Positions 3,113 to 31,756 are shown, counted from the first letter of the stretch. The stretch is DNA of 32,000 bases from Candidatus Nanosynbacter sp. BB002 (GCF_037013405.1 NZ_CP146064.1:720001-752000); one strand, 5' to 3'. Notes: a model not told the origin generated them from the letters alone. Translations and numbers: made by a program.

Positions 3113-3189
3113 CGGGGTGTGGCGCAGCTTGGTAGCGCGCACCGTTCGGGACGGTGAGGTCGCTGGTTCAAATCCAGTCACCCCGACCA
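3113..3189 (+). tRNA. tRNA-Pro (anticodon CGG), CCA encoded
   Basis: Hand-folded cloverleaf. Acceptor CGGGGTG/CACCCCG (7 bp), D stem GCGC/GCGC, anticodon stem CACCG/CGGTG with loop TTCGGGA (anticodon CGG at 3147..3149). Variable loop AGGTC, T arm GCTGG-TTCAAAT-CCAGT, discriminator A, then CCA. Confidence 0.95.
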
Positions 3190-18094: not shown

Positions 18095-18697
18095 TCAAAA
18101 TGACATCGCCTCCAATTCCCGCGGTAAAATCTCCTGCACCTCCACCGAACCTACCACTAAATGATAGCCGTATAAGTCCGACGGCAAATCACGCTCGACC
18201 GAACGCCAATTAACTGGGCGATTTTCATCAAAATAATCCAGTAGTTCTGCGTTCAAAAAATGGTCGCGCGGCAAGTCAACTGAACCATCCTGATTGATGA
18301 CCAGCGCTATCGACAAACCCGATGTCACGCCATCTTCATTTTTAGCATACGCCGCCGTCACCAGATGGACCACTGGCTCAAATTCCAACACTGATTGATC
18401 GCTCGCCTCCACCTGCGCCTGACCGCGACGCGCTAGCTGCTTATTAATTTCTGTTGTTAATTCCTCAACACTCGGCTTACCGTCAACCGCTCGGCAATAG
18501 TCGCAACCATCTGCCGCTTCGACATATTCCAGCAGTAAATCCATATCGACGTCAGTGTCTTTAACACCATGCTGCGACAATTGCTCCACCATTTCATGCA
18601 GCGCGCCTAGCAAACTATAATCATTAGCATTTCTAGCAGCATCACCGATGCGGATAATGGCGCGAGCGATGGTGATAGGATTTTTAGACTTACTCAT
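18095..18697 (-). CDS. Hypothetical acidic protein (200 aa), no recognisable domain
   Basis: Long ORF with normal composition, D/E-rich, with one CxxC (GCDYCR). It has its own TACAAT-N6-ATG element (18709..18695) immediately after the hsdR stop. Confidence 0.6.
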   Translation of the reverse strand: MSKSKNPITIARAIIRIGDAARNANDYSLLGALHEMVEQLSQHGVKDTDVDMDLLLEYVEAADGCDYCRAVDGKPSVEELTTEINKQLARRGQAQVEASDQSVLEFEPVVHLVTAAYAKNEDGVTSGLSIALVINQDGSVDLPRDHFLNAELLDYFDENRPVNWRSVERDLPSDLYGYHLVVGSVEVQEILPRELEAMSF

Positions 18698-18733: not shown

Positions 18734-21700
18734 TCAATCCAACAAACTCGCTCCGCCACCAGCGTCATACGTCGCGCGTTTATAGCTCCACTCGTTACCA
18801 TAACGCTTGGCTTGCTCCAATACCATATCGGTTGCCAATGACTGCTGGTCTGGCGGATATCCATACTTTGCCAACGTCTTTTTGACGTTAACTTTCAGTT
18901 TTGCCTGAACATTCCTGCGCTCTGCCCAGTCAATCGTGGCATCACGACGCACCTGCTCTAACAATACTTTCGCGATATCACGTAGCTGCGCGTCACCCAG
19001 TACTTCGCGGGCACTGCCATTTTCAACCAGCGCATCGTAAAAGATAATCTCATCCTCACTGAGGCCATCAACTGCGCCATTCTCAACAGTTTGGCGCACT
19101 TGCTGTCCGATGTTGATTAATTCCTCAATCACCTGCGCCGCCTCAATCGTCCCATTTCTATACCGCGTCAAGGCTTGGTTGAGCAAGTCAGAGAACTTCG
19201 TATCCTTGGCATAATTTCTCGAAAATCGTAGCTTGATTTCATCAGCGAGCAGCTTTTGCAGAGCTTCCACCGCCAAATTCTTGCGCTCCATGTTACGAAT
19301 TTCCGCCAAAAACTCATCACTCAAAATCGACAGTTCCGGCTTTTCTAATCCCGCCGCCTCAAACACATCAACCACACCCACTGGCGCAATTGCTTTATCA
19401 ACAATTTGTTTCAGCGCGCTTCGGTACTCAGCATCAGTCACAACTGTCGAGCTCGACACTTTCTCTAGCCGAGCTTTCACCGCCTGAAACAGCGCCACTT
19501 CCTCACGAATCTTCAACGCCTCGGGCCTCGGCATAGCCAGCGCAAAGGCTTTACTCAGTTCCAAAACATGCTGTTTCAATCGCTTCTCACCATCTTCCAA
19601 CCCTAAAATATATTCCTCGGCATCCAAAATAATTTGCAGTTGCCGGTCGGTTGGCGCCGTAAAATATCGCTGATAATCAAAGTTACCAAATAAATCGCGC
19701 ACCACCTCGTAACGCATCTGCATCTGCGCCACCGCCTCAGCAATATCAAGCTGCGGTGCGCCCCGCCCGCCGCTTTGCGTATAGTCAGAAATAGCATCGC
19801 GCAGCGCCCCTGCCACACCCAGATAGTCAACCACCAAACCACCGGTTTTTCCAGGGAACACTCGGTTGACTCGTGCAATTGCCTGCATTAAATTATGATC
19901 CTTCAATGGTTTATCCAGATACATAGTGTGCATATTTGGTACATCAAACCCCGTCAGCCACATATCGCACACAATCACGAGCTCAAGCGGATCGTTCGGA
20001 TCTTTGATGCGCTTTTCGATCGCTTTCACCCGCTGTTTATTACGAATATGCGGCTGCAAATAGTTAGGGTCGCTAGCGCTACCGGTGATAATCACCTTGA
20101 TCGCACCACGTGCGTCATCATCACTATGCCAATCCGGCCGATACGCCACGATTCTCTCATACAAATCAGCCGCAATACCGCGACTCATCGTCACGATCAT
20201 ACCCTTACCGCTCAGCACACTTTGCCGAGCCTCAAAATGCTCAATGATATCTAGCGCGATAGTATTCAGCCGCTCGCTATTACCGACGATGGCTTCTTTT
20301 TGTGCATACTCGGCCTTCAACGCATCCTGACGACTCAGTTCTTCGCCCTCCAGCAAATCATCAACTTCCTTATCCAGCCACTGCCGCGTTGCCTCGTCCA
20401 TATTCAAATCAACCAGCCGACTCTCATAATAAATCGGCACTGTTGCACCATCTTTCACCGCCTGCTCGACATCATAAATATCGATATAGTCGCCAAACAC
20501 TGCTGGCGTTGACTTATCATCCGTTTCAATCGGCGTACCCGTAAAGCCAATGTAGCTCGCACCCGGCAAGGCATCACGCATATATTTGGCATAACCATAT
20601 ACTAGCTGGGCGTCGCTAGCTCGAACATGTGCCTTCAAACCGTACTGGCTACGATGCGCCTCATCTGCCATCACGATGACATTGCGTCGATCGGTCAAAA
20701 TTGGCAATTTATCCTCGTCATCCTCAGGCGAGAACTTCTGGATTGTTGTAAAGATAATCCCACCTGCTTCGCGCTGCAGTAGCTTCCTGAGTTCACTGCG
20801 CGAATCAGCTTGTTTCGGATCTTCTCCCAGCAGCTCGCGACAGGCGCTAAACGTACCGAATAATTGACCATCAAGATCATTACGATCCGTCACCACCACG
20901 ATGGTTGGGTTATGCAAATCGCGCGATTTCATCAGCTTACCAGTATAAAACACCATACTCAAGCTCTTACCCGACCCTTGCGTATGCCAAACCACGCCAG
21001 CCCGTTGGTCACCGCGTTCACTACTAGCCGCCAGCGTCCGATCAAGCGCTTTATTCACCACCCAATATTGATGATAAGCGGCAACTTTTTTGATTAGTTT
21101 ATCGCCGTCGCTCCGCTCAAATACGATAAAATTCTGCACCATATCCAGCAAACGTTCAGGCGTACACGCACCGCGCAGCAGCACTTCCAACATCGGCACA
21201 TTGCCAACTTCTTTCTCGCCGTCAATCGTTTTCCACGGCATCATTCGTTCCAGCGGGCTGGTTATCGTCCCTATTTCCGCCTCTAGTCCATCACTGGTTA
21301 TACACAGTTCATTGAACCGAAACAAGTCGCTAATCTCTCGCTTGTACGTCTGGATTTGCTGATACGCCGCTACCAAATCCGCCTTCGTATCAGCCGCATT
21401 TTTTAGTTCAATCACCACCAAGGGTAGTCCATTCACAAATAGTACAATATCTGGCCGGCGATTATAATCGCCCTGCAAAACCGTCAGCTGATTGACCGCC
21501 ACAAAATCATTGTTTTTGAGCGAGGTAAAATCAACCACCCGTACAATATCGTGTTTCACTTCACCACTTGATGTACGGTACTGCACCGGCACGCCCGCCA
21601 CTAACAACTGATGGAAATCATGATTATTCTCAATCAAGCTTGGTTTACTAATCTGCGTCAAACGCCGCATCGCTTCATTCAAGGCTGGTCCTGGAATATG

Positions 21701-21868
21701 CGGATTGAGACGCACCAGTGTACTCTGTAGCCGCCCAGGTAACACCACCTGCCTGAGCTCACGCTCAGCCGCAGCACCATCTGGACCAATATCTGGTCCG
21801 TGTAGAATTTGCCAGCCGATACTAGCCAGGACGTCAAGCGCGTATTGTTCGATGTGGGATTCGGTCAT
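18734..21868 (-). CDS. hsdR: Type I restriction enzyme R subunit (HsdR)
   Basis: N-terminal PD-(D/E)xK nuclease motif (RPDIVLFVNGLPLVVIELKNA). SF2 helicase motif I is HTQGSGKS and motif II is MADEAHRSQ, with later motifs LTGFD and QAIARVNR. I prefer the ATG at 21868 (MTESHIEQY) over the track's GTG at 21886. Confidence 0.95.
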   Translation of the reverse strand: MTESHIEQYALDVLASIGWQILHGPDIGPDGAAAERELRQVVLPGRLQSTLVRLNPHIPGPALNEAMRRLTQISKPSLIENNHDFHQLLVAGVPVQYRTSSGEVKHDIVRVVDFTSLKNNDFVAVNQLTVLQGDYNRRPDIVLFVNGLPLVVIELKNAADTKADLVAAYQQIQTYKREISDLFRFNELCITSDGLEAEIGTITSPLERMMPWKTIDGEKEVGNVPMLEVLLRGACTPERLLDMVQNFIVFERSDGDKLIKKVAAYHQYWVVNKALDRTLAASSERGDQRAGVVWHTQGSGKSLSMVFYTGKLMKSRDLHNPTIVVVTDRNDLDGQLFGTFSACRELLGEDPKQADSRSELRKLLQREAGGIIFTTIQKFSPEDDEDKLPILTDRRNVIVMADEAHRSQYGLKAHVRASDAQLVYGYAKYMRDALPGASYIGFTGTPIETDDKSTPAVFGDYIDIYDVEQAVKDGATVPIYYESRLVDLNMDEATRQWLDKEVDDLLEGEELSRQDALKAEYAQKEAIVGNSERLNTIALDIIEHFEARQSVLSGKGMIVTMSRGIAADLYERIVAYRPDWHSDDDARGAIKVIITGSASDPNYLQPHIRNKQRVKAIEKRIKDPNDPLELVIVCDMWLTGFDVPNMHTMYLDKPLKDHNLMQAIARVNRVFPGKTGGLVVDYLGVAGALRDAISDYTQSGGRGAPQLDIAEAVAQMQMRYEVVRDLFGNFDYQRYFTAPTDRQLQIILDAEEYILGLEDGEKRLKQHVLELSKAFALAMPRPEALKIREEVALFQAVKARLEKVSSSTVVTDAEYRSALKQIVDKAIAPVGVVDVFEAAGLEKPELSILSDEFLAEIRNMERKNLAVEALQKLLADEIKLRFSRNYAKDTKFSDLLNQALTRYRNGTIEAAQVIEELINIGQQVRQTVENGAVDGLSEDEIIFYDALVENGSAREVLGDAQLRDIAKVLLEQVRRDATIDWAERRNVQAKLKVNVKKTLAKYGYPPDQQSLATDMVLEQAKRYGNEWSYKRATYDAGGGASLLD

Positions 21869-21883
21869 ATTATAGTAATTATA
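21869..21883 (-). promoter_or_regulatory. Possible internal promoter in the RT-hsdR gap (two TATAAT boxes)
   Basis: The minus strand reads GTGTATAATTACTATAAT-ATG. The first TATAAT is 9 nt from the ATG and the second abuts it. No SD. hsdR could equally be expressed by read-through from upstream. Confidence 0.25.
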
Positions 21884-21894
21884 CACCAGATGCC

Positions 21895-23448
21895 CTAGCT
21901 TGGTATGTCTCTAAAAAGGTCAACCTCCTGACGATCAATAGATATTTTATTCGTCTCCCTGATGCCTTGTAGCATATCGACGTCAACTATACTTGTGTCT
22001 CTAACTGTTTTCATTATATCGTCCTTTAGCCAATCAATACACCAGATAATAGAATTATCAATATATGCTCTTTCACTGACTAACCGGGTTAATAATTCAT
22101 TAAATTGCAAGTTCGGATCAATAGAGTAAGATACTCGCTGCAACCAAATATCTAATAAGCCAGTGTTAGGTATAATCTTGAACTTATCAAGAATTTTTTG
22201 AACAAGGAGTCCCCTCCTTGACTCACTCGCCCCACGGATAGTTAGACTCGCAACCGCCATCGCCATATTGTAATACTTAGGGTTTTTAATTGCCATATTA
22301 ACTACAATACTCAGCATAACTTCTGGTTTTTCATAATCACGTAAGCTTTTCCCTTTATCTAAGTAATCAAGAAGCTCCTCGTGAAACATATTTAGCTGGC
22401 GAGACACCATACCTGAATTAGGATATTTATAACTAGCTGCATAAATCTGCATTAACCATTTTGCAAAATTATCTTTTTCTTTCTTTATATTCGGTATGAA
22501 TAATTCTTCGATCTTATCCTTTTTAATAGAACTCAAGACTATATCGCTGCTCTTTTTGGTTTTCTGTGCATTTAATCTGAGACCAAGTATTGCTAAAATT
22601 TCAGTTAACTCTTTCAGTATACGAGCTCCTAGATCTAGCCTATTGGTAAAAATTCGATAGTCATCCCTGTAGCGAACAATGGAATATTCTCTTTTATCAA
22701 TATCTTTTACAGCTTGAGCTAAAAGACTATCAGCGTATGCAAAGATAAGCTCAGCAATAAAATCAGAAAGAGTATTTCCCTGGGGTATCCCGTTTGTCTG
22801 TCGATGATTCATCATCTGAAAATACTCATCAATTTTACCTCCCAGAGATTTTTTATCACGATTAGCATAAGCCTCTTCTTTGCCATGAAGAGCCCATGAA
22901 ATAGAATGCGTATATATTGATCCATAACAGTTTGCAACATCAGTTTCTAATACATATTGAAAATCAAGACCTTTAGTCGCACAGTTTTGTTCAAATTTCT
23001 CCCACCAAGCACGTATTTGCTCCGCTTTCGCGCTTTTCTTTTTTGAAGGTTGCATTGGAATACTAGCAACTTCAACATTACAGTCCCTCCTTAACTCAGA
23101 AAATCGCTTTTTTATAACACTCCAATTATCCTCTTTGGTAATATAATGCACTAACCCTACATAAAGAACTGGATTTATTATCTCAAATGGCCTCCAAGCT
23201 AATTCACCATCTTTGTTGCCGTAAATCACTTTATTTACATCATGTCTATCTCTTGGGTCTTTCTTCTTACGACTACCCTCTTCTGGATCAAAAAAGTAAT
23301 TAACATCATAACCACCCATCTTACTTGACACGGCTTGAAGTATTGGGTCAAAGTTAAAATATTCAGGCAAATCAAAGTTTACATAACTTTTACCGTCCAG
23401 CAAAAAAGCACGAGCTTGCTTATGATCAAATTCTAATATATTAGCCAT
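21895..23448 (-). CDS. Reverse transcriptase (RNA-directed DNA polymerase), Abi/UG-like defence-associated type with a C-terminal alpha-helical domain
   Basis: RT motifs by my residue count: motif 1/2 WRPFEIINPVLYV (~85-97); motif A LETDVANCYGSIYTH (D170); motif B NGIPQGNTLSDFIAELIF (~219-236); motif C VRYRDDYRIF (Y260-D263, DNA 22671..22660); motif D/E LGLRLNAQKTK. The ~215-aa C-terminal extension has no recognisable thumb/X/En/integrase motifs. TAATG overlap with hsdS. Confidence 0.9.
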   Translation of the reverse strand: MANILEFDHKQARAFLLDGKSYVNFDLPEYFNFDPILQAVSSKMGGYDVNYFFDPEEGSRKKKDPRDRHDVNKVIYGNKDGELAWRPFEIINPVLYVGLVHYITKEDNWSVIKKRFSELRRDCNVEVASIPMQPSKKKSAKAEQIRAWWEKFEQNCATKGLDFQYVLETDVANCYGSIYTHSISWALHGKEEAYANRDKKSLGGKIDEYFQMMNHRQTNGIPQGNTLSDFIAELIFAYADSLLAQAVKDIDKREYSIVRYRDDYRIFTNRLDLGARILKELTEILAILGLRLNAQKTKKSSDIVLSSIKKDKIEELFIPNIKKEKDNFAKWLMQIYAASYKYPNSGMVSRQLNMFHEELLDYLDKGKSLRDYEKPEVMLSIVVNMAIKNPKYYNMAMAVASLTIRGASESRRGLLVQKILDKFKIIPNTGLLDIWLQRVSYSIDPNLQFNELLTRLVSERAYIDNSIIWCIDWLKDDIMKTVRDTSIVDVDMLQGIRETNKISIDRQEVDLFRDIPS

Positions 23449-24584
23449 TATATCTTAATCTCTCCGGAAATTAATTTTGGTAAAAGCAAATCACGAATGT
23501 TAGATAAATAATCTATTTGCTTCTTGTTTTTATGTATCATATCAAACAATGGTCGCACTCTCTGCTCAAAAGCATTAAAATCGCAATCTGGTAAATTAGC
23601 AATCTCCAAAAGCTCTATGTGCTTTGGATAAATATGCGGCTGACCAGAGCCAGTTTGCATATCATATATCTCTTTTTGCTTATTCTTGAGGAATAAATAG
23701 TAGGTATAAACATATTTGGTAATTGTTGAGTCAATGTACGAAGAGTCTGCCGACCAGACTGGTTCACCCCAAACAGATACAAAGCCAGCATTTGCTCCGG
23801 ATGCACTTATCGTAATAACTGGTGCAACTGTGTTTGCTTTATTATGAAATCCAGCTGGTTTCAGGCCACCGCTAATAACCGGCGTGTCACCACAAATCAT
23901 ATCTCTAACTTGCAAACTTCTACCTCTTTTTGGGTGAAACTTTTTTCCTAAAGGTATGGTCTGTATATTACCATTACTCTGCTTAGCTTTATCAACAAAA
24001 TAATGACGAAAGAGAGCTTGACCGAGCTGCTCGAGGGTTTCATTCATGTGGCGATTGAGCTCGATTTTTTCATCAAGACTGCCGAGGATATTGGCAATTT
24101 TCTTTTGTTGGTCGAGTGGTGGCAGATTAAGTTCCATATTAGGCACCGCTTTGACTGATAAGTGCATTACTGTACTGCCATTGCTATGTGCTAGCATATA
24201 CTCTCGAGTAATTGGAGACTTTAGATAATAAAAAAGATACCTAGGATCAATGACTTCTGTATTTGTTACTATTATTTTCGACAGATCCAACGAAAAGCAA
24301 GCACTCCTGCCTATATCTGGCATAATTATAGGACTACCGATAATTTCACGATTCTGAGTAAGATCTGTGTTTGCTATCAGGATGTCGCCAGACTCAACAT
24401 ATTGCGATGGTTTTATTTGTCCTGCGTAATATTTTATGCCATCAGCATTATATCCCCCACCCCTAGCAACAGACTTTAGGTTCACAAAAGCAATTCCATT
24501 TTCTGAATTAGAATAATCGGCACTTCTGTATGAAATACCTTTGATAATCTCTGCAACCTCACCAAGTAGGATCGTTTTTGTCAT
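23448..24584 (-). CDS. hsdS: Type I restriction enzyme specificity subunit (HsdS)
   Basis: Two target-recognition regions separated by the conserved central helix (LPPLDQQKKIANILGSLDEKIELNRHMNETLEQLGQALFRHYF). The conserved C-terminal helix is IDYLSNIRDLLLPKLISGEI. Confidence 0.92.
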   Translation of the reverse strand: MTKTILLGEVAEIIKGISYRSADYSNSENGIAFVNLKSVARGGGYNADGIKYYAGQIKPSQYVESGDILIANTDLTQNREIIGSPIIMPDIGRSACFSLDLSKIIVTNTEVIDPRYLFYYLKSPITREYMLAHSNGSTVMHLSVKAVPNMELNLPPLDQQKKIANILGSLDEKIELNRHMNETLEQLGQALFRHYFVDKAKQSNGNIQTIPLGKKFHPKRGRSLQVRDMICGDTPVISGGLKPAGFHNKANTVAPVITISASGANAGFVSVWGEPVWSADSSYIDSTITKYVYTYYLFLKNKQKEIYDMQTGSGQPHIYPKHIELLEIANLPDCDFNAFEQRVRPLFDMIHKNKKQIDYLSNIRDLLLPKLISGEIKI

Positions 24585-26638
24585 TTTTTTATTGCCCTTT
24601 CGGTAGCCTCATCCGCGTTCGTATAATCAATTGCAAGCCTGTCGCGTTCAGTTTTTAATTCATTTTCGATAAACTTATGTCTACACTCCACGTCTGCAAA
24701 TATATCACTCCATTTTCTAACATAGATTTTACAATTATCCTTTGAGAATATTAGCCCTTTTTCTTTCTCCCCATGCCCTTTATTGGTGTCAATTTCACCC
24801 TCTATGTAGCCTGATTCATTAAATTTATTACCAACAAGCACAAAATCCCAGTAAGTATTATCACCATTAAACCGAGAGTCTGAAAATATTGTTCGTTGAT
24901 ATCTCTTGATCTGAGACACTTCTTTCTCCCCAAGCAAAACAGCGGGTCGTTTCAGCTCTATTACTAGGTTATTTATGCGATCGTTTTCAATACTTTTTCT
25001 ACATAAAAATAAATCCATCTCCTTATTCTTATCTGGAGATTCCATATTCACATCTTGCTTTTTGCCGCCACGTAGTATATATAGATATTCTGACAATGCT
25101 TTTTCAAATTTAGCTTCAGTACTAGAAACAAGATTATATTCCTCTCCAAAAACCCAAAAATTATGATCCAAAACTTTTTGCACATGATCAACCTCACGAG
25201 AATTGAAGCTATCATTAAAGACTATCTCCTTTAGAGCATCAATTGTAGTATAACGGTTTTGAATCATCTTAATAGTTTGAATTATGGAGTTTAGTTTATT
25301 CACCTTTAATAGGTCCGCTAATTGTTTCTGTTCTTGATCATCAAGCCGCACAACAGCGTCGATAATTGTATATATCTGATCGCGCTGATTTGAATCTAGA
25401 AGTGCGTTTAGAAGATGTATAAAAGTCTTTCTCTGCTCTATACTCGAATTACCTTCACCAAATATTTTCGGTTGGATTTTATAAATATCTTTTATGAGAG
25501 TTTTTAGTTCGTTATTGCGAGGAATTTCCCAGCTGTTATTGACTTCAGGAATAATGTTCTCTTTTTCATACTTTTCAACGAGATCATCTGCCATCTTTTG
25601 GAGATGCGGACTACGCATGCGACGTAGGTAATCGTTAATTTCGGAAATAACATATTTAAATTCCTCGTCTCGCTTACTATTAAACTTTTGCTCTTTATTT
25701 TGTAGAGTGCTTTGGTCATAATCAATTTTGTCCTCGTATGAGAACATGTCAAAATAATCACTTCTTATATATACGCTATGATAAAATTTATCGCCTTTAT
25801 TGTTCAGTAGGGTTGTAGATTTATAGTTCTCCTTGCCAGTTGAATCTATTAGATAATATCGCGAGAATTCTTTATTTAGTTTTTTCTTCCACTGAATATA
25901 CTTAACATCAAAGCGAGTTGATGTTGCATCGTGAATAATCTTCTCATCCCTTTCACCAGCTATCATTTCTCTATAGTCAAGAGGACTACCATTAATAGAT
26001 ATAGAGAACATCTTATCTTTGAATAATTCTAAAAACCAACAAAATTCCTGTAACAGGTATTGTTTTACGGTAGTCTCAATATTGCCCGAAGACAGCTCGC
26101 GTATCCCCTCAAATGTAACCTTTGTTGACGTCCCATGCTCATATGGTATTTCAGAAACAGGCGAATGAGCACCCGTATAACTATGCAAATCATCAGACTT
26201 GATTTCTATATCATATTTATAAAGCTTACTGTTTTTTTCATATACCGTTGTCCATCGTGCAATATTTGCAAACGTAAAAAAAGTAAGTCGACCCACTCCA
26301 TTTTTGCCATGCACCAAAGAATGATGCCTGGAGTCTGTCTTATTTAGCGCCTTTTCCGATTCATGAAAAGGCTTAAACTTCACAGACAATAAACCCTGAG
26401 GTATTCCACTTCCATTATCTGCTATAGTAATACTTCTTAACGATCCTAACTCATTTTCTTCATAGCTAATGTCTATACTAGTTGCACCTGCATCAAATCC
26501 ATTCCAAATATATTCGGCGATTGATTCCTGTGGCGAATAAGCACTTAATATAGATTTAACTCCGTCTCCACCAAGCTGAATCTCGTCCGAAACAATTGCT
26601 TCTGCTAGACTATCTTTTAATACTGTACTGTTAGTCAT
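24581..26638 (-). CDS. GHKL (Bergerat-fold) ATPase fused to a C-terminal PD-(D/E)xK nuclease-like domain (685 aa)
   Basis: N-box [16 protein letters not shown] (ExxxNxxDA), G1 box IADNGSGI (DxGxG), G2 box [11 protein letters not shown]. The C-terminal part has ...[15 protein letters not shown]...EMDLFLCRK-x12-NLVIELKRP...SQIKRYQ (D542/E561/K563 by my count; the E561 codon is at 24958..24956). It overlaps hsdM (ATGACTAA) and hsdS (ATGA). Confidence 0.85.
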
Positions 26639-28124
26639 TTTTATATGATTCTTTTATTCTTTTTAGGTTTATAGAGATAGATTTTTCTAACTCACGGCTC
26701 TTCGCAAACTGCCCTTCAAGCTCAGCCGTTAACCGGGCAAATTTCTCGACGAACGGCTCACCGTCTTCTTCTATTTCCTCAACGCCCACGTAGCGACCAG
26801 GTGTCAATACATAATCATACTGCTTAATTTCTTCTAGATCGGCGACTTTACAAAAACCCGGCTGATCAGTGTAATCCGCACTAGCGGTTTTGTAATCATG
26901 ATATGTCTTCGCCACCCGAGCAATGTCTTCTGCGGTTAGTTCACGGTTACGGCGGGTGACCATTTTACCCAAATTACGCCCATCGATGAACAGCACTTTG
27001 CCGTGGCGGTTCGCCCGGTTGCGCGACACGAACCACAGACAGCATGGTATGGCTACATTGAAAAATAGCTGACTCGGCAGTGTGACAATAGCGTCAACCA
27101 TATCATTAAGAACCAGCTGTTTGCGGATATCACCTTCGCCACCAGTTTGGCTACTCATACTGCCGTTTGCCAGCACGAAACCCGCCGTACCACGTGGGCT
27201 CAAGTGGTGAATCATATGCTGAATCCACGCAAAGTTAGCATTACCCTTTGGCGGTAGACCATATTTCCAGCGCGGGTCAGCCTGCAAGTGTTCTTGACCC
27301 CAGTCGCTAATGTTAAACGGCGGATTGGCCAAAATGTAATCAGCTTTCAGATCAGGGAGCTGGTCATCCATCAGAGTGTCGCCACGTTTGATATTCGCAT
27401 CAATTCCCCGAATTGCCATATTCATTTTAGCGAGTCGCCAAGTGGTTTCGTTTAGCTCCTGACCATACACTGCAATGTCGCTGACACGACCAGCGTGCTC
27501 CTCGACAAACTTCTCACTCCAGACAAACATACCGCCACTACCGCAACATGGGTCGTACACGCGCCCGCTGTATGGCTCAAGCATTCCTACCAGCAATTTC
27601 ACGATGGAGCGCGGCGTGTAGAATTCACCACCGTGTTTACCCTCGCTGTCGGCAAACATACCCATAAAATATTCGTAGACTTGACCAAGTAAATCTTTGG
27701 AGCTGGCAGTGTCGAATTTGATATTTGTAAATAAATCGATAAGTTCACCCAAGCGACGCTTATCTAGAGCTTCACGAGCATAATTTTTCGGCAACACACC
27801 CTTCAGACTAGGGTTGTCTCGTTCAATTGCCTCCATAGCACTATCGACTAGAACGCCAATTTCTGGCTGCTTGGCGCTCGCCACCAGGTGTTCCCAACGA
27901 GCCTCCTTGGGAATCCAAAAAACATTCTCCGCCAAATACCAATCCCGATCTTCAGGATCATAGTTCTCATCAATCGCTGCCTGATGTCGCACCGAAAACG
28001 CATCTGAAACATATTTTAGAAAAATCAGCCCCAATACCACATATTTATAATCCGACGAGCTGATATTACCCCGTAGTTTATCCGCCGCAGCCCACAACTG
28101 CTTTTCAAGCTCCCTTGTATTCAT
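26631..28124 (-). CDS. hsdM: Type I restriction enzyme methyltransferase subunit (HsdM), N6-adenine
   Basis: N-terminal HsdM_N-like region ([32 protein letters not shown]). AdoMet motif I is [12 protein letters not shown] and catalytic motif IV is LANPPFN. Confidence 0.95.
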
Positions 28125-28152: not shown

Positions 28153-28806
28153 TTACTCTGAGTGTAGCAGACTTTTGTAGTCAGTTTTCGTAACAATAAT
28201 ATGATCATTAAGCGTAATGCCAAGCAATTTTCCCGCTTCTGCCAGCCTATTCGTAACATCTTTATCAGCCTGACTGGCTTCCAAACCCCCACTCGGATGA
28301 TTATGCGCCACGATGATGCTGGCGGCGCGGTCGGCAATGGCATCAGCGAAGACCTCGCGCGGGTGCACCAGACTGGCCATCAGCGTACCGATAGTCACAA
28401 CCCGCTTGGCGATCAAACGATTCGCGCCGTCCAGCGTCAAGCAGACAAAATATTCCTGTTTTTTATCGCGAATGTCGGCCAGTAGCTCGACGGCTTTTTC
28501 TGGGCCGTCAATAATTGGCTGGTCGCTATCCAGCAAATACCGCCGCGCCAGTTCCAAACTCGCTAAAATCACCGGGATTTTCGCTTCACCCAATCCAACC
28601 ACGCCACGCAGATCATCATACGAAATATCGCCGCCTTTTTGACGCACAATTTTCAGCACCTCGCGCGCAATTTTACCGACATCCGCCTGTTTATTACCGC
28701 TGCCGATAATCGCCATCAAGAGTTCCAAGTCGCTCAGCCGCGCCGTACCGTAACGCACTAGTTTCTCGCGGGGACGATCATCGGGACGGCGATCTTGCAT
28801 TTTCAT
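28153..28806 (-). CDS. radC: RadC-like JAB/MPN-domain protein (UPF0758)
   Basis: N-terminal HhH-like region (RPREKLVRYGTARLSDLELLMAIIGSG) and a C-terminal JAMM motif (IIVAHNHPSGGLEASQADKDVT). I place the start at the ATG at 28806 (MKMQDRRP), which forms a TGATG junction with the crtEb stop. The track start at 28872 would overlap crtEb by 67 nt. Confidence 0.85.
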   Translation of the reverse strand: MKMQDRRPDDRPREKLVRYGTARLSDLELLMAIIGSGNKQADVGKIAREVLKIVRQKGGDISYDDLRGVVGLGEAKIPVILASLELARRYLLDSDQPIIDGPEKAVELLADIRDKKQEYFVCLTLDGANRLIAKRVVTIGTLMASLVHPREVFADAIADRAASIIVAHNHPSGGLEASQADKDVTNRLAEAGKLLGITLNDHIIVTKTDYKSLLHSE

Positions 28807-29666
28807 CACACACCCCACACCTTCATCAATAACGTCACGGTTACCACCGCCCCAGCGACATAGTTCAGCCACAAGAAACGTCGCCAGCCCGCCCGTGCCT
28901 CCGCCGAGCGTTCATCACGAATTCGTACAAACGGCAGTAGATTGATGATATATAAGCTGCCTGCAGATGCCACTGGCCATGCCGCCACACCCAGGCACGC
29001 TACCAACCCGACCGCCGCCACGTACAGCAGTATCGCTAACCAGACGGTCGACCGCGCACCAAACACCGTGGCGATGGAGCGAATCTTGGCTTCGCGGTCT
29101 GGCACAATATCCTGCACCGCACCAAACGCCTGACTAGCCATACCCCAGCAAAAAAATGCGACAGCCACCAACCATCCCGCTTGCGTCGTGCCAACCAACG
29201 AATAGGCATACAGCAGCGGACCGACAAAATGTAGACTTGAGGTCACCGAATCCAGTAATGGCACTTCCTTAGACCGCAGCCCCTTCGCGCTATATGCCAC
29301 CACAAAAAACAACACCACCGCTAACACCAACGCACTTTGCCAGTTGCCCAACAGCACCAATGCCAGCACGAATGGCAGGCATGATAGCACCGCCGACCAC
29401 ACGATCAACCGATGATATTTCCGTGGCGTCACGGCGCCTTCGACACCGCCCTTGCGGGGATTTCGCATATCTGATTCATAGTCGCACACGTCATTAATGC
29501 CATACATCAGCAAATTGTACGGGATGAGGAAAAACAGCGTACCAATAATCAGCCGTGCGTCAATAGCCCCGCCCATGACCACATAGCCCGCCGCAAACGG
29601 ATAGGCCGTATTCACCCACGACAGCGGTCGCGAGGTCATAAATAAGACGTTAATTTTTTCTTTCAC
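28806..29666 (-). CDS. crtEb: UbiA-family prenyltransferase, lycopene elongase type
   Basis: Polytopic UbiA-fold protein with Asp-rich motifs (NDVCDYESD; AVQDIVPDREA). The N-terminus SRPLSWVNTAYPFAAGY is typical of lycopene elongases. It is the last gene of a crtB-crtI-crtYe-crtYf-crtEb order. GTG start with GGAAGGGG upstream. Confidence 0.75.
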   Translation of the reverse strand: MKEKINVLFMTSRPLSWVNTAYPFAAGYVVMGGAIDARLIIGTLFFLIPYNLLMYGINDVCDYESDMRNPRKGGVEGAVTPRKYHRLIVWSAVLSCLPFVLALVLLGNWQSALVLAVVLFFVVAYSAKGLRSKEVPLLDSVTSSLHFVGPLLYAYSLVGTTQAGWLVAVAFFCWGMASQAFGAVQDIVPDREAKIRSIATVFGARSTVWLAILLYVAAVGLVACLGVAAWPVASAGSLYIINLLPFVRIRDERSAEARAGWRRFLWLNYVAGAVVTVTLLMKVWGV

Positions 29667-29946
29667 GATTTAACCCCTTCCAAATCGCTGGCACGGCCAA
29701 CCCCGCCAAGAGTGAATAAAACAAATCTTCAATCGGCGCTAGCCCCACGTGTATTCCCAAAATTTTATCTGCAGGATAGGTAAACATACCCAAGTAAATC
29801 AGTAGTGAATCAAACACAATCGTCGTCACCAGCAATACCGCTAGCGTCGCCCACACCGCACGGCCAAATGTTAATAATTTGCGCCATGCCAGCACACCTA
29901 GTACTGTCGTCAAAAACAGCAGATTGAGTACTATATATGTCGCCAT
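29650..29946 (-). CDS. crtYf: Lycopene-cyclase-domain small membrane protein (heterodimeric carotenoid cyclase subunit)
   Basis: 98 aa, 3 TM helices, motif GLAPIEDLFYSLL (PxE(E/D) cyclase motif). The position matches crtYf of actinobacterial C50 clusters. A C40 CrtYc/Yd role cannot be excluded. Confidence 0.7.
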   Translation of the reverse strand: MATYIVLNLLFLTTVLGVLAWRKLLTFGRAVWATLAVLLVTTIVFDSLLIYLGMFTYPADKILGIHVGLAPIEDLFYSLLAGLAVPAIWKGLNRERKN

Positions 29947-30245
29947 CGCTTTACTCCCGCCCGGTAGACTACCAGGCTAAAATAACTCAAAAACAGCAAG
30001 AAGAACAATTCTTCCAACGGAAATTCTGGAAATAAATACACGCCCGACATATACGGCGAATGTCCGCTGAGAAAGATACCGAGCGAGATACCACAAACAT
30101 CCCACACGATGAACGCGCTGGTCATAATGAGCACGGTCAGTACTGTACGGCGAGCATCATACCAGTAGGCTAGCCTATACCACCAGTCCAGCACTGCCAT
30201 CCCCACCCAACTAACAATAATTCCCGCTAAATACAGCCAACTCAT
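29931..30245 (-). CDS. crtYe: Lycopene-cyclase-domain small membrane protein (heterodimeric carotenoid cyclase subunit)
   Basis: Motif FPLEELFFLLFLSYF, 3 TM helices. I place the start at the ATG at 30245 (MSWLYLAG), which forms an ATGA junction with the crtI stop. The track start at 30323 would overlap crtI by 82 nt. Confidence 0.7.
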   Translation of the reverse strand: MSWLYLAGIIVSWVGMAVLDWWYRLAYWYDARRTVLTVLIMTSAFIVWDVCGISLGIFLSGHSPYMSGVYLFPEFPLEELFFLLFLSYFSLVVYRAGVKRWRHI

Positions 30246-31756
30246 ATATCCTCCTTGGTGAGCGGTCCACGACAGCGGTTTCCCGTGATGCGCTTGTAGG
30301 TCAGCTGCGCACTGATCAAGCACATCGGCAGACCTATCCCCGGTAGCGTCCCCGCACCAACATAATACAAATTTGGCACTTTTTTACTGCGATTACGCGT
30401 ACGGAACATAACGCTTTGGCTGAGTAAGTGCGATTCACCACCAAAGGCGTTGTACTGCCAGGCATTAAATTGCTCGCCAAACTGCTCTGGACCATAGACA
30501 AGCTGAGAAACAATTCGCTCAGGCAGATCAGGCTCGCCAGTCATCTCAACAAGAATCTGGATTATCTTATCCTTGCAAGACACTTCTTGTTCTGGCGTCA
30601 GCGTTATGCCAGCTGGTAACGGCAGCAATACAAGCAAATTTTCATGCCCCAGCGGCGCCAAGTCAGGATCGGTCTTGGATGGGTTGCAGACGTAGAGCGA
30701 GGCATGCTCTGGCACTGTGCCAGTTTCATAAATCGCCGCAAAGTTTTCACGCCAGTTTCTCACAAAGTAGAGATTATGATGTTGTAAATTCGACAATCCC
30801 CCTTTGACACCCAGCGAAACCAGCAACGCGCCTGGCCCCGGCTGGCGTTTTTGCCAATACTTTTCGGGGTAGCTTCGAGCAGCTGGCGGTAATAATTTGG
30901 TTTCAGTATGATGGATATCGGCTGCTGAAATTACCAAGTCAACCGCAATGTGTTCGCCGTTCATCAGTTCAATACCCGTGGCCTGATGACCATCCAGCAC
31001 AATCTGCTTTACCGGCGAATTATAATGATATTTCACACCCAAACTTTTTCCCAACCGCTCCATGCTATCCGCCAATTCCATCATGCCACGCCGCGGATAA
31101 TACACACCGCTACGAAAATCGAGATGACTCATCAGGCTGTAGACAGCCGGTGCTTGAAACGGGCTGGAACCCAAAAATACCATGTGATATTCTAGCAATT
31201 GTTTAAGCCGAAGATCCCGAAACCAGCGGCTCACATGAGCGTCCAGTGTCCGCCACACTAGCGGCAACATGGTCGGTAACTGGCGCAGAAGCGGCCACTG
31301 TAACACATCACCAACCCGCGTGAAATTGTTATACAGCGCGTGCTTCACCGCCACCTCATACACCTGGCTGCTACGCGTGACATAGCGCTGTAGTTTTTCA
31401 CCTGCACCGGGTTCAATTGCCTCAAATATTGCCATATCTTTATCAACATCACCCTGAATAATCAGTGGCTCATAGCCTTCACTCCACACCTTGTAGCCAG
31501 GCGAAAATCGCACCAAGTCGAGTTCTTGCTCAGCCGATCGATCAAACAATTGATAATACTGCTCAAAAATCTCTGGCATCAAATACCACGACGGGCCAAG
31601 ATCAAAGGTAAAGCCATCTTGCTTGACCACTTGAATCCAACCACCGGCTGACGGGTTCTTCTCGTATACCGCCACCTGGTACCCTGCTTTCGCCAGCAAA
31701 TTTGCCAGTGCCAGCCCGCCGTAGCCCGCGCCGATGATCACCGCTTTCTTTGTCAT
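30242..31756 (-). CDS. crtI: Phytoene desaturase (CrtI family)
   Basis: N-terminal FAD fold VIIGAGYGGLALANLLAKAGYQVAVYEKN, GPSWYLMPEIFE, and the C-terminal carotenoid-binding region YYVGAGTLPGIGLPMCLISAQL. Confidence 0.92.
   Translation of the reverse strand: MTKKAVIIGAGYGGLALANLLAKAGYQVAVYEKNPSAGGWIQVVKQDGFTFDLGPSWYLMPEIFEQYYQLFDRSAEQELDLVRFSPGYKVWSEGYEPLIIQGDVDKDMAIFEAIEPGAGEKLQRYVTRSSQVYEVAVKHALYNNFTRVGDVLQWPLLRQLPTMLPLVWRTLDAHVSRWFRDLRLKQLLEYHMVFLGSSPFQAPAVYSLMSHLDFRSGVYYPRRGMMELADSMERLGKSLGVKYHYNSPVKQIVLDGHQATGIELMNGEHIAVDLVISAADIHHTETKLLPPAARSYPEKYWQKRQPGPGALLVSLGVKGGLSNLQHHNLYFVRNWRENFAAIYETGTVPEHASLYVCNPSKTDPDLAPLGHENLLVLLPLPAGITLTPEQEVSCKDKIIQILVEMTGEPDLPERIVSQLVYGPEQFGEQFNAWQYNAFGGESHLLSQSVMFRTRNRSKKVPNLYYVGAGTLPGIGLPMCLISAQLTYKRITGNRCRGPLTKEDI

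Follow-up and report, generated by a model that had tools for sequence, protein, structure and literature searches.

A predicted GHKL ATPase/PD-(D/E)xK nuclease fusion of the paraMORC3 kind in a type I hsd operon of Candidatus Nanosynbacter sp. BB002

Introduction

The paraMORC3 proteins were defined in 2008 by a GHKL ATPase domain, an S5 domain, and, at the C-terminus, a domain of the restriction-endonuclease fold bearing an E-D-ExK signature (Iyer, Abhiman & Aravind, PMC2292703). In that work, their occurrence was described as sporadic, partly in restriction-modification (R-M) operons and partly stand-alone, with Proteobacteria and Bacteroidetes emphasized; R-M roles were inferred for paraMORCs from like contexts, and a repair role was considered for the stand-alone paraMORC3 proteins (PMC2292703). 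More recently, GHKL-containing proteins were placed in 'type 1D Shedu' by Gu et al. 2023 (bioRxiv 10.1101/2023.08.10.552793), and a GHKL-type 'Shedu type I-D' protein from the WASA lineage of Vibrio cholerae, VcSduA, was found to protect both E. coli and V. cholerae against phage (Adams et al. 2025, PMC12137116). This defense was abolished by E27A in the ATPase or K557A in the nuclease, was obtained in E. coli with VcSduA expressed alone, and was robust at all multiplicities of infection tested, consistent with preserved host viability (PMC12137116). In this study, we describe a gene of the same general design that lies between hsdM and hsdS of a type I R-M (hsd) operon, within a 32,000-nucleotide stretch from Candidatus Nanosynbacter sp. 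BB002 (GCF_037013405.1, NZ_CP146064.1:720001-752000). This whole stretch is hereafter called the window, and coordinates are counted from its first nucleotide.

With a probability that we put at roughly 0.6, the product of this gene is an autonomous, ATP-gated DNA nuclease of the paraMORC3 kind to which VcSduA also belongs. Suggesting this are the conserved catalytic residues, the predicted fold, and a remote homology to VcSduA, a protein that cannot defend without its ATPase residue or its nuclease residue; we further infer an anti-phage function and an independence from HsdM and HsdS. There is nothing conceptually new in these findings, as the architecture was predicted in 2008, listed in 2023, and validated for one branch in 2025, and the window family is an uncharacterized sister. 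An earlier sequence-only reading of the window had presented the fusion as a predicted defense component, which stands, with the qualification that it restates what has been known as paraMORC3 since 2008 and already validated in one branch.

Domain architecture and predicted catalytic residues

The open reading frame lies between hsdM and hsdS exactly where the sequence-only reading had placed it, and all of the motif strings quoted there were found at the residues given, with D542 and E561 18 residues apart. The gene and its four parts are as follows.

24581..26638, minus strand: GHKL ATPase/PD-(D/E)xK nuclease fusion gene (paraMORC3-like); open reading frame of 685 residues with an ATG start
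26099..26581, minus strand: GHKL (Bergerat-fold) ATPase domain, about residues 20-180; Pfam HATPase_c_3 over residues 34-148
25739..26089, minus strand: transducer (S5-like) domain, about residues 184-300; from Foldseek and conservation
25214..25666, minus strand: long alpha-helical region, about residues 325-475, between the ATPase module and the nuclease; from DSSP on the model
24629..25201, minus strand: PD-(D/E)xK nuclease domain, about residues 480-670; from conservation, HSDR_N_2, the model, and Foldseek

Conservation was counted twice, first among 29 aligned homologues and then among 80 sequences made up of the window protein and 79 homologues from different species. At the N-terminus, Pfam HATPase_c_3 was matched at 7.2e-17 (62.1 bits against a cut-off of 25), as it was by all 29 homologues, and the GHKL motifs are I (E42xxxN46xxD49), II (D74xG76xG78), III (G111xxG114xG116), and IV (T172). 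Here, a ten-residue motif I string supplies E42, N46, D49, and A50, with DNGSGI spanning residues 74-79 and HGKNGVGR residues 110-117. Whereas E42 and T172 are found in 79 of the 80 sequences, N46, D49, D74, G76, G78, G111, G114, and G116 are invariant, and conservation extends into the transducer domain with T276, N279, and H287 (80/80), D283 (79/80), and K281 (at least 90%).

An AlphaFold2 model of the full protein (mean predicted local distance difference test score, pLDDT, of 80.8) displays an ATP-binding domain, a second alpha/beta domain, helices, and an alpha-beta-beta-beta-alpha-beta C-terminal domain. For the first two domains, Foldseek against the PDB gave matches with E-values near 1e-10, extending over 325-460 columns, to TRAP1/Hsp90, MutL LN40, MORC2/3, and Topo II; the MutL LN40 entries (1b63 and 1nhh) align over 325-333 columns with a TM-score on the target of 0.41-0.45, MORC2 and MORC3 over about 380-400, and MORC2/3 and TRAP1 together span 380-460. 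The Bergerat ATPase that had been proposed for the N-terminus is thus borne out, and this part of the protein falls in the MutL/Hsp90/MORC class of GHKL ATPases, with predicted ATP binding and hydrolysis. Ahead of motif III, the model has two segments of low pLDDT (residues 91-102 and 104-113), which may form a flexible ATP lid. With sequence searches of the PDB, using the full protein and the family profile, matches to MutL-like and histidine-kinase chains were limited to the first ~90 residues (the motif I-II region), apart from a few at chance level (E of at least 0.19).

In having a Bergerat ATP-binding fold followed by a transducer, the window protein is like the MutL, Hsp90, MORC, and Topo II modules that are its best structural matches. 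It differs from MutL, MORC, and Topo II, however, in lacking the MutL C-terminal dimerization/endonuclease domain, the MORC-associated domains, and Toprim, and has a PD-(D/E)xK nuclease fused instead. MORC proteins in the strict sense carry GhXhhpXXRhl as a hallmark motif of their S5 domain (Iyer 2008, PMC2292703). No MORC-specific profile turned up in the Pfam and NCBIfam scans, in which the GhXhhpXXRhl motif itself was not searched for.

The middle of the protein, about 350 residues rich in Lys, Glu, and Asn, had been noted as such by the sequence-only reading, but it is no linker, as the folded transducer (about residues 184-300) gives way to a helical region (about 325-475). DSSP assigned helices in the latter at residues 325-359, 369-388, 400-415, 421-429, and 434-474, and the region is collinear with its counterpart in the VcSduA family according to hhalign.

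For the C-terminal domain, the predicted catalytic residues are E499 (in WxFGEEY), D542, E561, and K563, plus Q576. The first four are found in all 80 sequences and Q576 in 77, giving the signature W495xFGE499xY, D542, E561xK563, and Q576; the conservation across homologues on which the nuclease prediction had been staked is therefore present for D542, E561, and K563 alike. As to the quoted strings, a fifteen-residue stretch occupies positions 489-503, MDLFL 541-545, VIELKRP 559-565, and SQIKRY 575-580. The PD-(D/E)xK model HSDR_N_2 of Pfam matched the window protein below threshold (residues 526-584), and was matched by 27 of the 29 homologues and by each of 20 C-terminal fragments (best 7.9e-6). 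When modeled alone, the domain (pLDDT 82) retains the alpha-beta-beta-beta-alpha-beta core, comprising by DSSP a helix at residues 511-522, strands at 543-548 (just past D542) and 555-562 (with E561 at its end), a helix at 571-586 (containing Q576), and a strand at 595-603. In the model, D542 stands just ahead of the first of two paired strands, E561 closes the second, and K563 follows two residues on. The leading Foldseek matches of this domain in the PDB are PD-(D/E)xK nucleases, namely NucS, MspJI, McrC, HamA, Cap4, AF1548, BamHI, FokI, Can2, and LmuA, and the C-terminal profile found no match at E<=10 among PDB sequences. From its sequence and model, the C-terminal domain is predicted to be an active PD-(D/E)xK nuclease, and its E-D-ExK residues are conserved.

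All of the published features of paraMORC3 are present in the window protein, which we assign to paraMORC3 by the published definition. The two are alike in the GHKL domain with all ATP-binding motifs, the S5 transducer, the E-D-ExK nuclease, a patchy spread, and the existence of both R-M-linked and stand-alone members. The window clade differs in deriving from Saccharibacteria/Patescibacteria-like genomes, where it occurs inside type I hsd operons.

As a mechanism, we envisage that ATP binding probably causes the GHKL and transducer module to dimerize, in the manner of MutL, Hsp90, and MORC, and that the module serves as a gate or clamp. The helical region would relay the state of the ATPase to the PD-(D/E)xK domain, and E499, D542, E561, and K563 would then cut invading DNA, which is the presumed substrate.

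Separately, a 'Type II restriction enzyme' model of PADLOC (PDLC03419) matched eight of the 29 homologues (best 1.8e-8), the window protein not being among them, and weak matches to MzaB were seen in five. Some relatives may already be catalogued as putative restriction enzymes.

Relationship to VcSduA and Shedu

When the window family was compared by hhalign with eight full-length VcSduA-family proteins encoded on plasmids, a probability of 97.6% (E 2.7e-12) was obtained over 567 collinear columns, pairing residues 24-676 with 28-683, from the GHKL domain through to the end of the nuclease. Within this alignment, the motifs hyWiFGEqY, EMD, and VVELKxP of the window family fall on NLWIIDERL, rPD, and VVEfKRP of the VcSduA family, respectively. 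By this profile-profile alignment, the one comparison that connects the two families, the window protein is a remote full-length sister of the VcSduA defense nuclease. The two share the four-part architecture and the length, and the motif I Glu and ExK Lys that VcSduA needs for defense correspond here to E42 and K563. Moreover, some relatives of VcSduA likewise adjoin hsdM-hsdS. Nonetheless, identity is only about 15%, motif I reads FEAVxNSIH in VcSduA and is a different ten-residue string here, and the nuclease lead-in is NLWIIDERL there as opposed to NFWVFGEEY in the window protein. An identity with VcSduA itself, at first assumed from compatible residue numbering (E27/K557), was ruled out by the VcSduA sequence, which is of a different family.

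The nuclease had also been likened to the Shedu (DUF4263) or Mrr type. Here, the PD-(D/E)xK assignment was supported, but a specific affinity to either of these was not demonstrated. Pfam SduA_C was matched by only three of 20 homologues (best E 0.0016, under the gathering score) and Mrr_cat by one. The SduA models of PADLOC gave weak but recurrent matches in 18 of 29 homologues (best 0.0017). With a canonical DUF4263 profile of 28 sequences, seeded from a Shedu gene that neighbors a VcSduA-like one in a Vibrio fluvialis plasmid, hhalign gave the window family a probability of 3.7%, and with the single Shedu sequence 0.35%. Even the VcSduA family reached only 27% against the Shedu profile. Shedu structures were absent from the top 50 Foldseek matches of the C-terminal model in the PDB. 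The likeness to canonical Shedu (SduA, DUF4263) lies in a PD-(D/E)xK nuclease with a helical lead-in and in the single-gene defense format, whereas the window family is better fitted by the model of the HsdR N-terminal nuclease (HSDR_N_2) than by SduA_C.

Distribution and gene neighborhoods of the homologues

A search of 5.8 billion proteins yielded 1199 matches, of which the top 120 are full-length with 42-99% identity; the few of these that are named by their sources go by no more than 'hypothetical protein' or 'ATP-binding protein'. In an exhaustive search of representatives clustered at 50% identity, 501 clusters reached E<=1e-30. Among 185,579 species genomes, at least 523 carry a homologue, spanning Patescibacteria, Bacteroidota, Chloroflexota, Firmicutes, Proteobacteria, Cyanobacteria, Verrucomicrobia, and Archaea. 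This distribution looks patchy and driven by horizontal transfer. More distant full-length homologues (22-28% identity) are encoded on plasmids, and two are found in Pasteurella phages. Both PADLOC 2.0 and NCBIfam miss the family, which is large and unannotated, and catalogues relying on the VcSduA model alone would overlook it.

The phage homologues were observed in Pasteurella phage Pmp14 (L082, 4956-6914) and in Pmp3, as full-length proteins with 25% identity (E ~1e-36). In Pmp14, the gene is placed in a moron-like manner among hypothetical genes, with tail-chaperone genes to one side and the tape-measure gene to the other.

Neighborhoods were inspected at 80 genome loci of homologues, taking R-M adjacency to mean a directly neighboring gene on the same strand and 5 kb as the wider radius. 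By this measure, R-M genes are directly adjacent at ten loci and within 5 kb at 14, and 66 loci are without a detectable R-M gene within 5 kb; at most of the 80, the intergenic gaps are large and the neighbors unrelated. Clustering of the neighbors of the 80 loci uncovered no conserved partner gene other than hsd. The surroundings are nevertheless rich in defense and mobile genes, among them AbiEii-like AAA_21, HipA, PIN_12, NERD, AIPR, RhuM, SIR2+DUF87, a Cap4 nuclease, integrases, recombinases, and conjugation genes. A defense context had been anticipated by the sequence-only reading, and the neighborhoods are indeed defense or mobile-element regions. Its further proposal of HsdM-HsdS as a platform for the nuclease does not hold for the family as a whole, in view of the ten adjacent loci and of VcSduA working alone, but retains some footing in the window's clade, which is persistently R-M-embedded.

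In a neighbor-joining tree, R-M linkage is rare outside of two clades, and three members elsewhere (L013, L045, and L076) are merely near R-M genes. Co-occurrence with hsd genes is thus a clade-restricted and not a family-wide property. The partners are heterogeneous, including HindI-like and EcoEI-like HsdR, type III Mod/Res, and type ISP enzymes, the last in the case of a distant plasmid homologue that directly follows the R-M gene with a 4-nt overlap. Within the window's clade, with X as the GHKL gene, the arrangements are hsdM-X-hsdS, hsdM-RhuM-X-hsdS-PIN-hsdR, RadC-hsdM-DUF4357-X-DUF6650-hsdS, and hsdR-X-hsdM-hsdS, as well as the type III orders mod-X-res and res-mod-X.

Several individual loci are of interest in themselves. 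Close relatives (52-53% identity) occupy type III operons, as mod-GHKL-res in L084 (6045-12716) and as res-mod-GHKL in L085 (1307-8016), the latter carried by a conjugative element that also encodes TrbC, a relaxase, and a TrwB-like protein. On the Vibrio fluvialis plasmid pIDH5335-1 (L091, 1-5495), hsdM and hsdS are followed by a canonical Shedu gene (SduA_C 1.3e-25) and a VcSduA-like GHKL gene that overlap by 4 nt, so that a type I R-M locus here contains both kinds of nuclease as immediate neighbors. A Salinivibrio plasmid has hsdM-hsdS-GHKL, with a GHKL gene of the VcSduA family and no Shedu gene.

Organization of the hsd operon

The remaining genes of the operon, along with the block of low GC content in its middle, are listed below.

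26631..28124, minus strand: hsdM, type I R-M methyltransferase; Pfam N6_Mtase 6.7e-113 and HsdM_N 1.3e-27, PADLOC MTase_I 3.6e-206
23448..24584, minus strand: hsdS, specificity subunit; Pfam Methylase_S 2.7e-20, PADLOC Specificity_I 2.8e-81
21895..23448, minus strand: AbiP2-type defense reverse transcriptase (RT), full length; PADLOC AbiP2 2e-169, Pfam RVT_1 2.3e-11
18734..21886, minus strand: hsdR, type I restriction subunit, with which the operon ends; Pfam HSDR_N, SWI2_SNF2, and T1RH-like_C (2.1e-114), PADLOC REase_I with E reported as 0
21890..26700, no strand: low-GC block corresponding exactly to RT, hsdS, and the GHKL gene; from composition profiles

On the minus strand, the operon thus runs hsdM-GHKL-hsdS-RT-hsdR, with an overlap or gap of at most 8 nt at every junction. 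Reading of the junction sequence revealed an 8-nt overlap between the hsdM stop and the GHKL gene start; the GHKL gene stop and hsdS start overlap by 4 nt, and the hsdS stop and AbiP2 RT start by 1 nt, followed by an 8-nt gap to hsdR. Being translationally coupled to hsdM and hsdS, the GHKL gene would have its product made along with the R-M enzyme. A promoter and terminator scan of the operon gave counts no higher than in shuffled sequence, and the best promoter-like site (28223-28196) is just upstream of hsdM, inside the 3' end of a RadC-like gene.

The GC content is about 31-41% across the RT, hsdS, and GHKL genes, as against about 50% in the flanks. One Candidatus Saccharibacteria metagenome-assembled genome (L001) encodes a protein 99% identical to the window protein, with DNA 94% identical across 8 kb. 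The second target-recognition half of hsdS (about 23497-23989), however, has no nucleotide match by blastn in L001 or L002, although its flanks are collinear at about 90-94% identity, and this points to shuffling of the specificity domains. Moreover, in L001 (13258-16860, against 21887-23497 in the window) the RT slot is filled by other genes, namely a 196-residue open reading frame, a 314-residue RVT_1 reverse transcriptase, a helix-turn-helix plus SocA/Panacea antitoxin-like protein, and a 136-residue open reading frame. Related Saccharibacteria genomes therefore retain the GHKL gene with a swapped second half of hsdS, and in one of them the RT slot is replaced as well. Unrelated inserts (RhuM, DUF4357, DUF6650, PIN_12, and Ea47) take the same positions in sister operons, and the gap between hsdS and hsdR appears to be a swap site for defense cassettes.

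We read the GHKL gene as one of two accessory defense cassettes placed where the hsd operon is exchangeable and low in GC, the other being the AbiP2 RT; counted for this were the low GC, the swapped hsdS half and RT slot in relatives, and the other inserts in sister operons. In these Saccharibacteria-like genomes, the variable middle is clearly plastic and would be a place of exchange for a GHKL-nuclease, an AbiP2 RT, another RT accompanied by a Panacea-type antitoxin, and halves of hsdS.

Autonomy or coupling to restriction-modification

For an autonomous nuclease, we counted the few R-M-adjacent loci, the unrelated neighbors, and the homologues on plasmids and phages, and the GHKL-nuclease is probably a second protective layer instead of a subunit of the R-M enzyme. 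Several points weigh against this autonomy and against the defense role that goes with it. BLASTP of the window protein against the VcSduA query (399 residues, from Supplementary Table 5 of the preprint) gave an E of just 0.028, and neither WNGFDA nor HGKNGVGR occurs in any of the listed matches to the VcSduA hidden Markov model (543 per the paper). The transfer of function from VcSduA is made across about 15% identity, with experiments confined to the VcSduA branch, and the structural matches lend the nuclease fold weak support, the best Foldseek E being 5e-3 and the TM-scores low. More conspicuously, nine of the 12 members of the window's clade in the neighbor-joining tree lie inside type I or III R-M operons, a tenth (L003) has res and mod genes 1.1-4.8 kb downstream, and seven of the 12 members of a Bacteroidota clade lie in hsdR-X-hsdS operons. 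Such a linkage, outlasting changes in the type of R-M system, argues for more than passive hitch-hiking.

It is on these clades that the main, if tentative, alternative is built, which we consider rather unlikely, in which the protein is functionally coupled to the NTP-dependent type I and III R-M enzymes in the window's clade. Precedent for an accessory of this sort is found in effectors of the PrrC and RloC type, whose genes sit within type I R-M loci; PrrC, an anticodon nuclease with an ABC-type NTPase, is kept latent by the R-M proteins and provides the model of a guard. The interval between hsdS and hsdR, which houses the AbiP2 RT here, is the slot of PrrC in EcoprrI. In the guard version, a latent nuclease would be freed when phage anti-restriction proteins inhibit the R-M complex, as for PrrC with EcoprrI. 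In the clamp version, as proposed by Iyer et al. for MORC and paraMORC, a clamp-nuclease would act on the DNA loops or ends that arise from the translocating R-M motor. The window protein resembles PrrC and RloC as an accessory effector whose gene is housed in an hsd operon and would be expressed along with those of HsdM, HsdS, and HsdR. It departs from PrrC in its predicted chemistry, that of a GHKL ATPase with a DNA nuclease, and in that most of its homologues have no R-M neighbor.

Besides the linkage in the two clades and its varied arrangements, coupling is favored by the start and stop codons that overlap those of hsdM and hsdS, by the overlap of the distant homologue with its type ISP gene, by the VcSduA-family genes that follow hsdM-hsdS on the Vibrio fluvialis and Salinivibrio plasmids, and by the paraMORC R-M roles put forward in 2008 (PMC2292703). 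Set against it are the stand-alone majority (66 of 80), the unrelated cassettes in the same operon slots, the protection conferred by VcSduA alone in E. coli (PMC12137116), and the heterogeneity of the partners (two HsdR families, type III, and type ISP), because of which a single conserved protein interface is unlikely. That the GHKL-nuclease of the window's and Bacteroidota clades evolved into an accessory of type I, III, or ISP enzymes, be it a motor-triggered clamp-nuclease or a guard, is something we hold to be possible but doubtful. If true, it would explain why the linkage persists through changes of R-M type and gene order, and the clade-specific embedding in type I and III operons provides test cases for the 2008 idea that paraMORCs cooperate with NTP-dependent restriction enzymes.

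We think it improbable that the gene is a selfish or addiction module, toxic upon loss of the element, or a plasmid- or phage-borne weapon in inter-element competition. Homologues are carried by conjugative plasmids and Pasteurella phages and often adjoin toxin-antitoxin genes, as would suit such a module, but no conserved small antitoxin-like partner gene was found in the neighborhoods, protection by VcSduA was robust at all multiplicities of infection tested (PMC12137116), and this explanation in practice overlaps with that of defense.

Finally, a housekeeping factor for DNA repair or topology (for example, in MutL-like mismatch or nick processing) that came to lie in the hsd operon by chance is highly improbable, since the weak PDB and NCBIfam sequence matches to MutL, MLH1, and PMS, the place of MutL LN40 among the best structural matches, and the repair role weighed by Iyer et al. 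for stand-alone paraMORC3 proteins (PMC2292703) are countered by a spread that resembles horizontal transfer, by homologues on plasmids, conjugative elements, and phages, by the compositionally foreign low-GC cassette, by defense-gene neighbors with no conserved MutS, UvrD, or similar partner, and by NCBIfam MutL scores of 17-27 bits against cut-offs of 180-750.

Surroundings of the operon

The RadC-like gene, encoding a JAB protein, is directly upstream of hsdM (28153-28872, minus strand), and the RadC-hsdM pairing recurs in L001, L002, and the P0011 contig. Directly downstream of hsdR is an open reading frame of 200 residues (18095-18697, minus strand) that has no Pfam or PADLOC match and is kept downstream of hsdR in L002. 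Farther upstream, the translations from 28806-31756 (minus strand) resemble carotenoid genes, by eye only, and comprise a 504-residue phytoene-desaturase-like FAD (flavin adenine dinucleotide) protein, two small lycopene-cyclase-like membrane open reading frames, and a UbiA-type prenyltransferase-like one; such genes beside a Saccharibacteria-like hsd locus would be unexpected. The sole tRNA of the window is a tRNA-Pro (CGG) at 3113-3189 (plus strand), and the left half is otherwise ordinary, with a ClpB-like AAA+ protein, an ABC transporter, an FtsX permease, a sulfatase, and a polysaccharide deacetylase.

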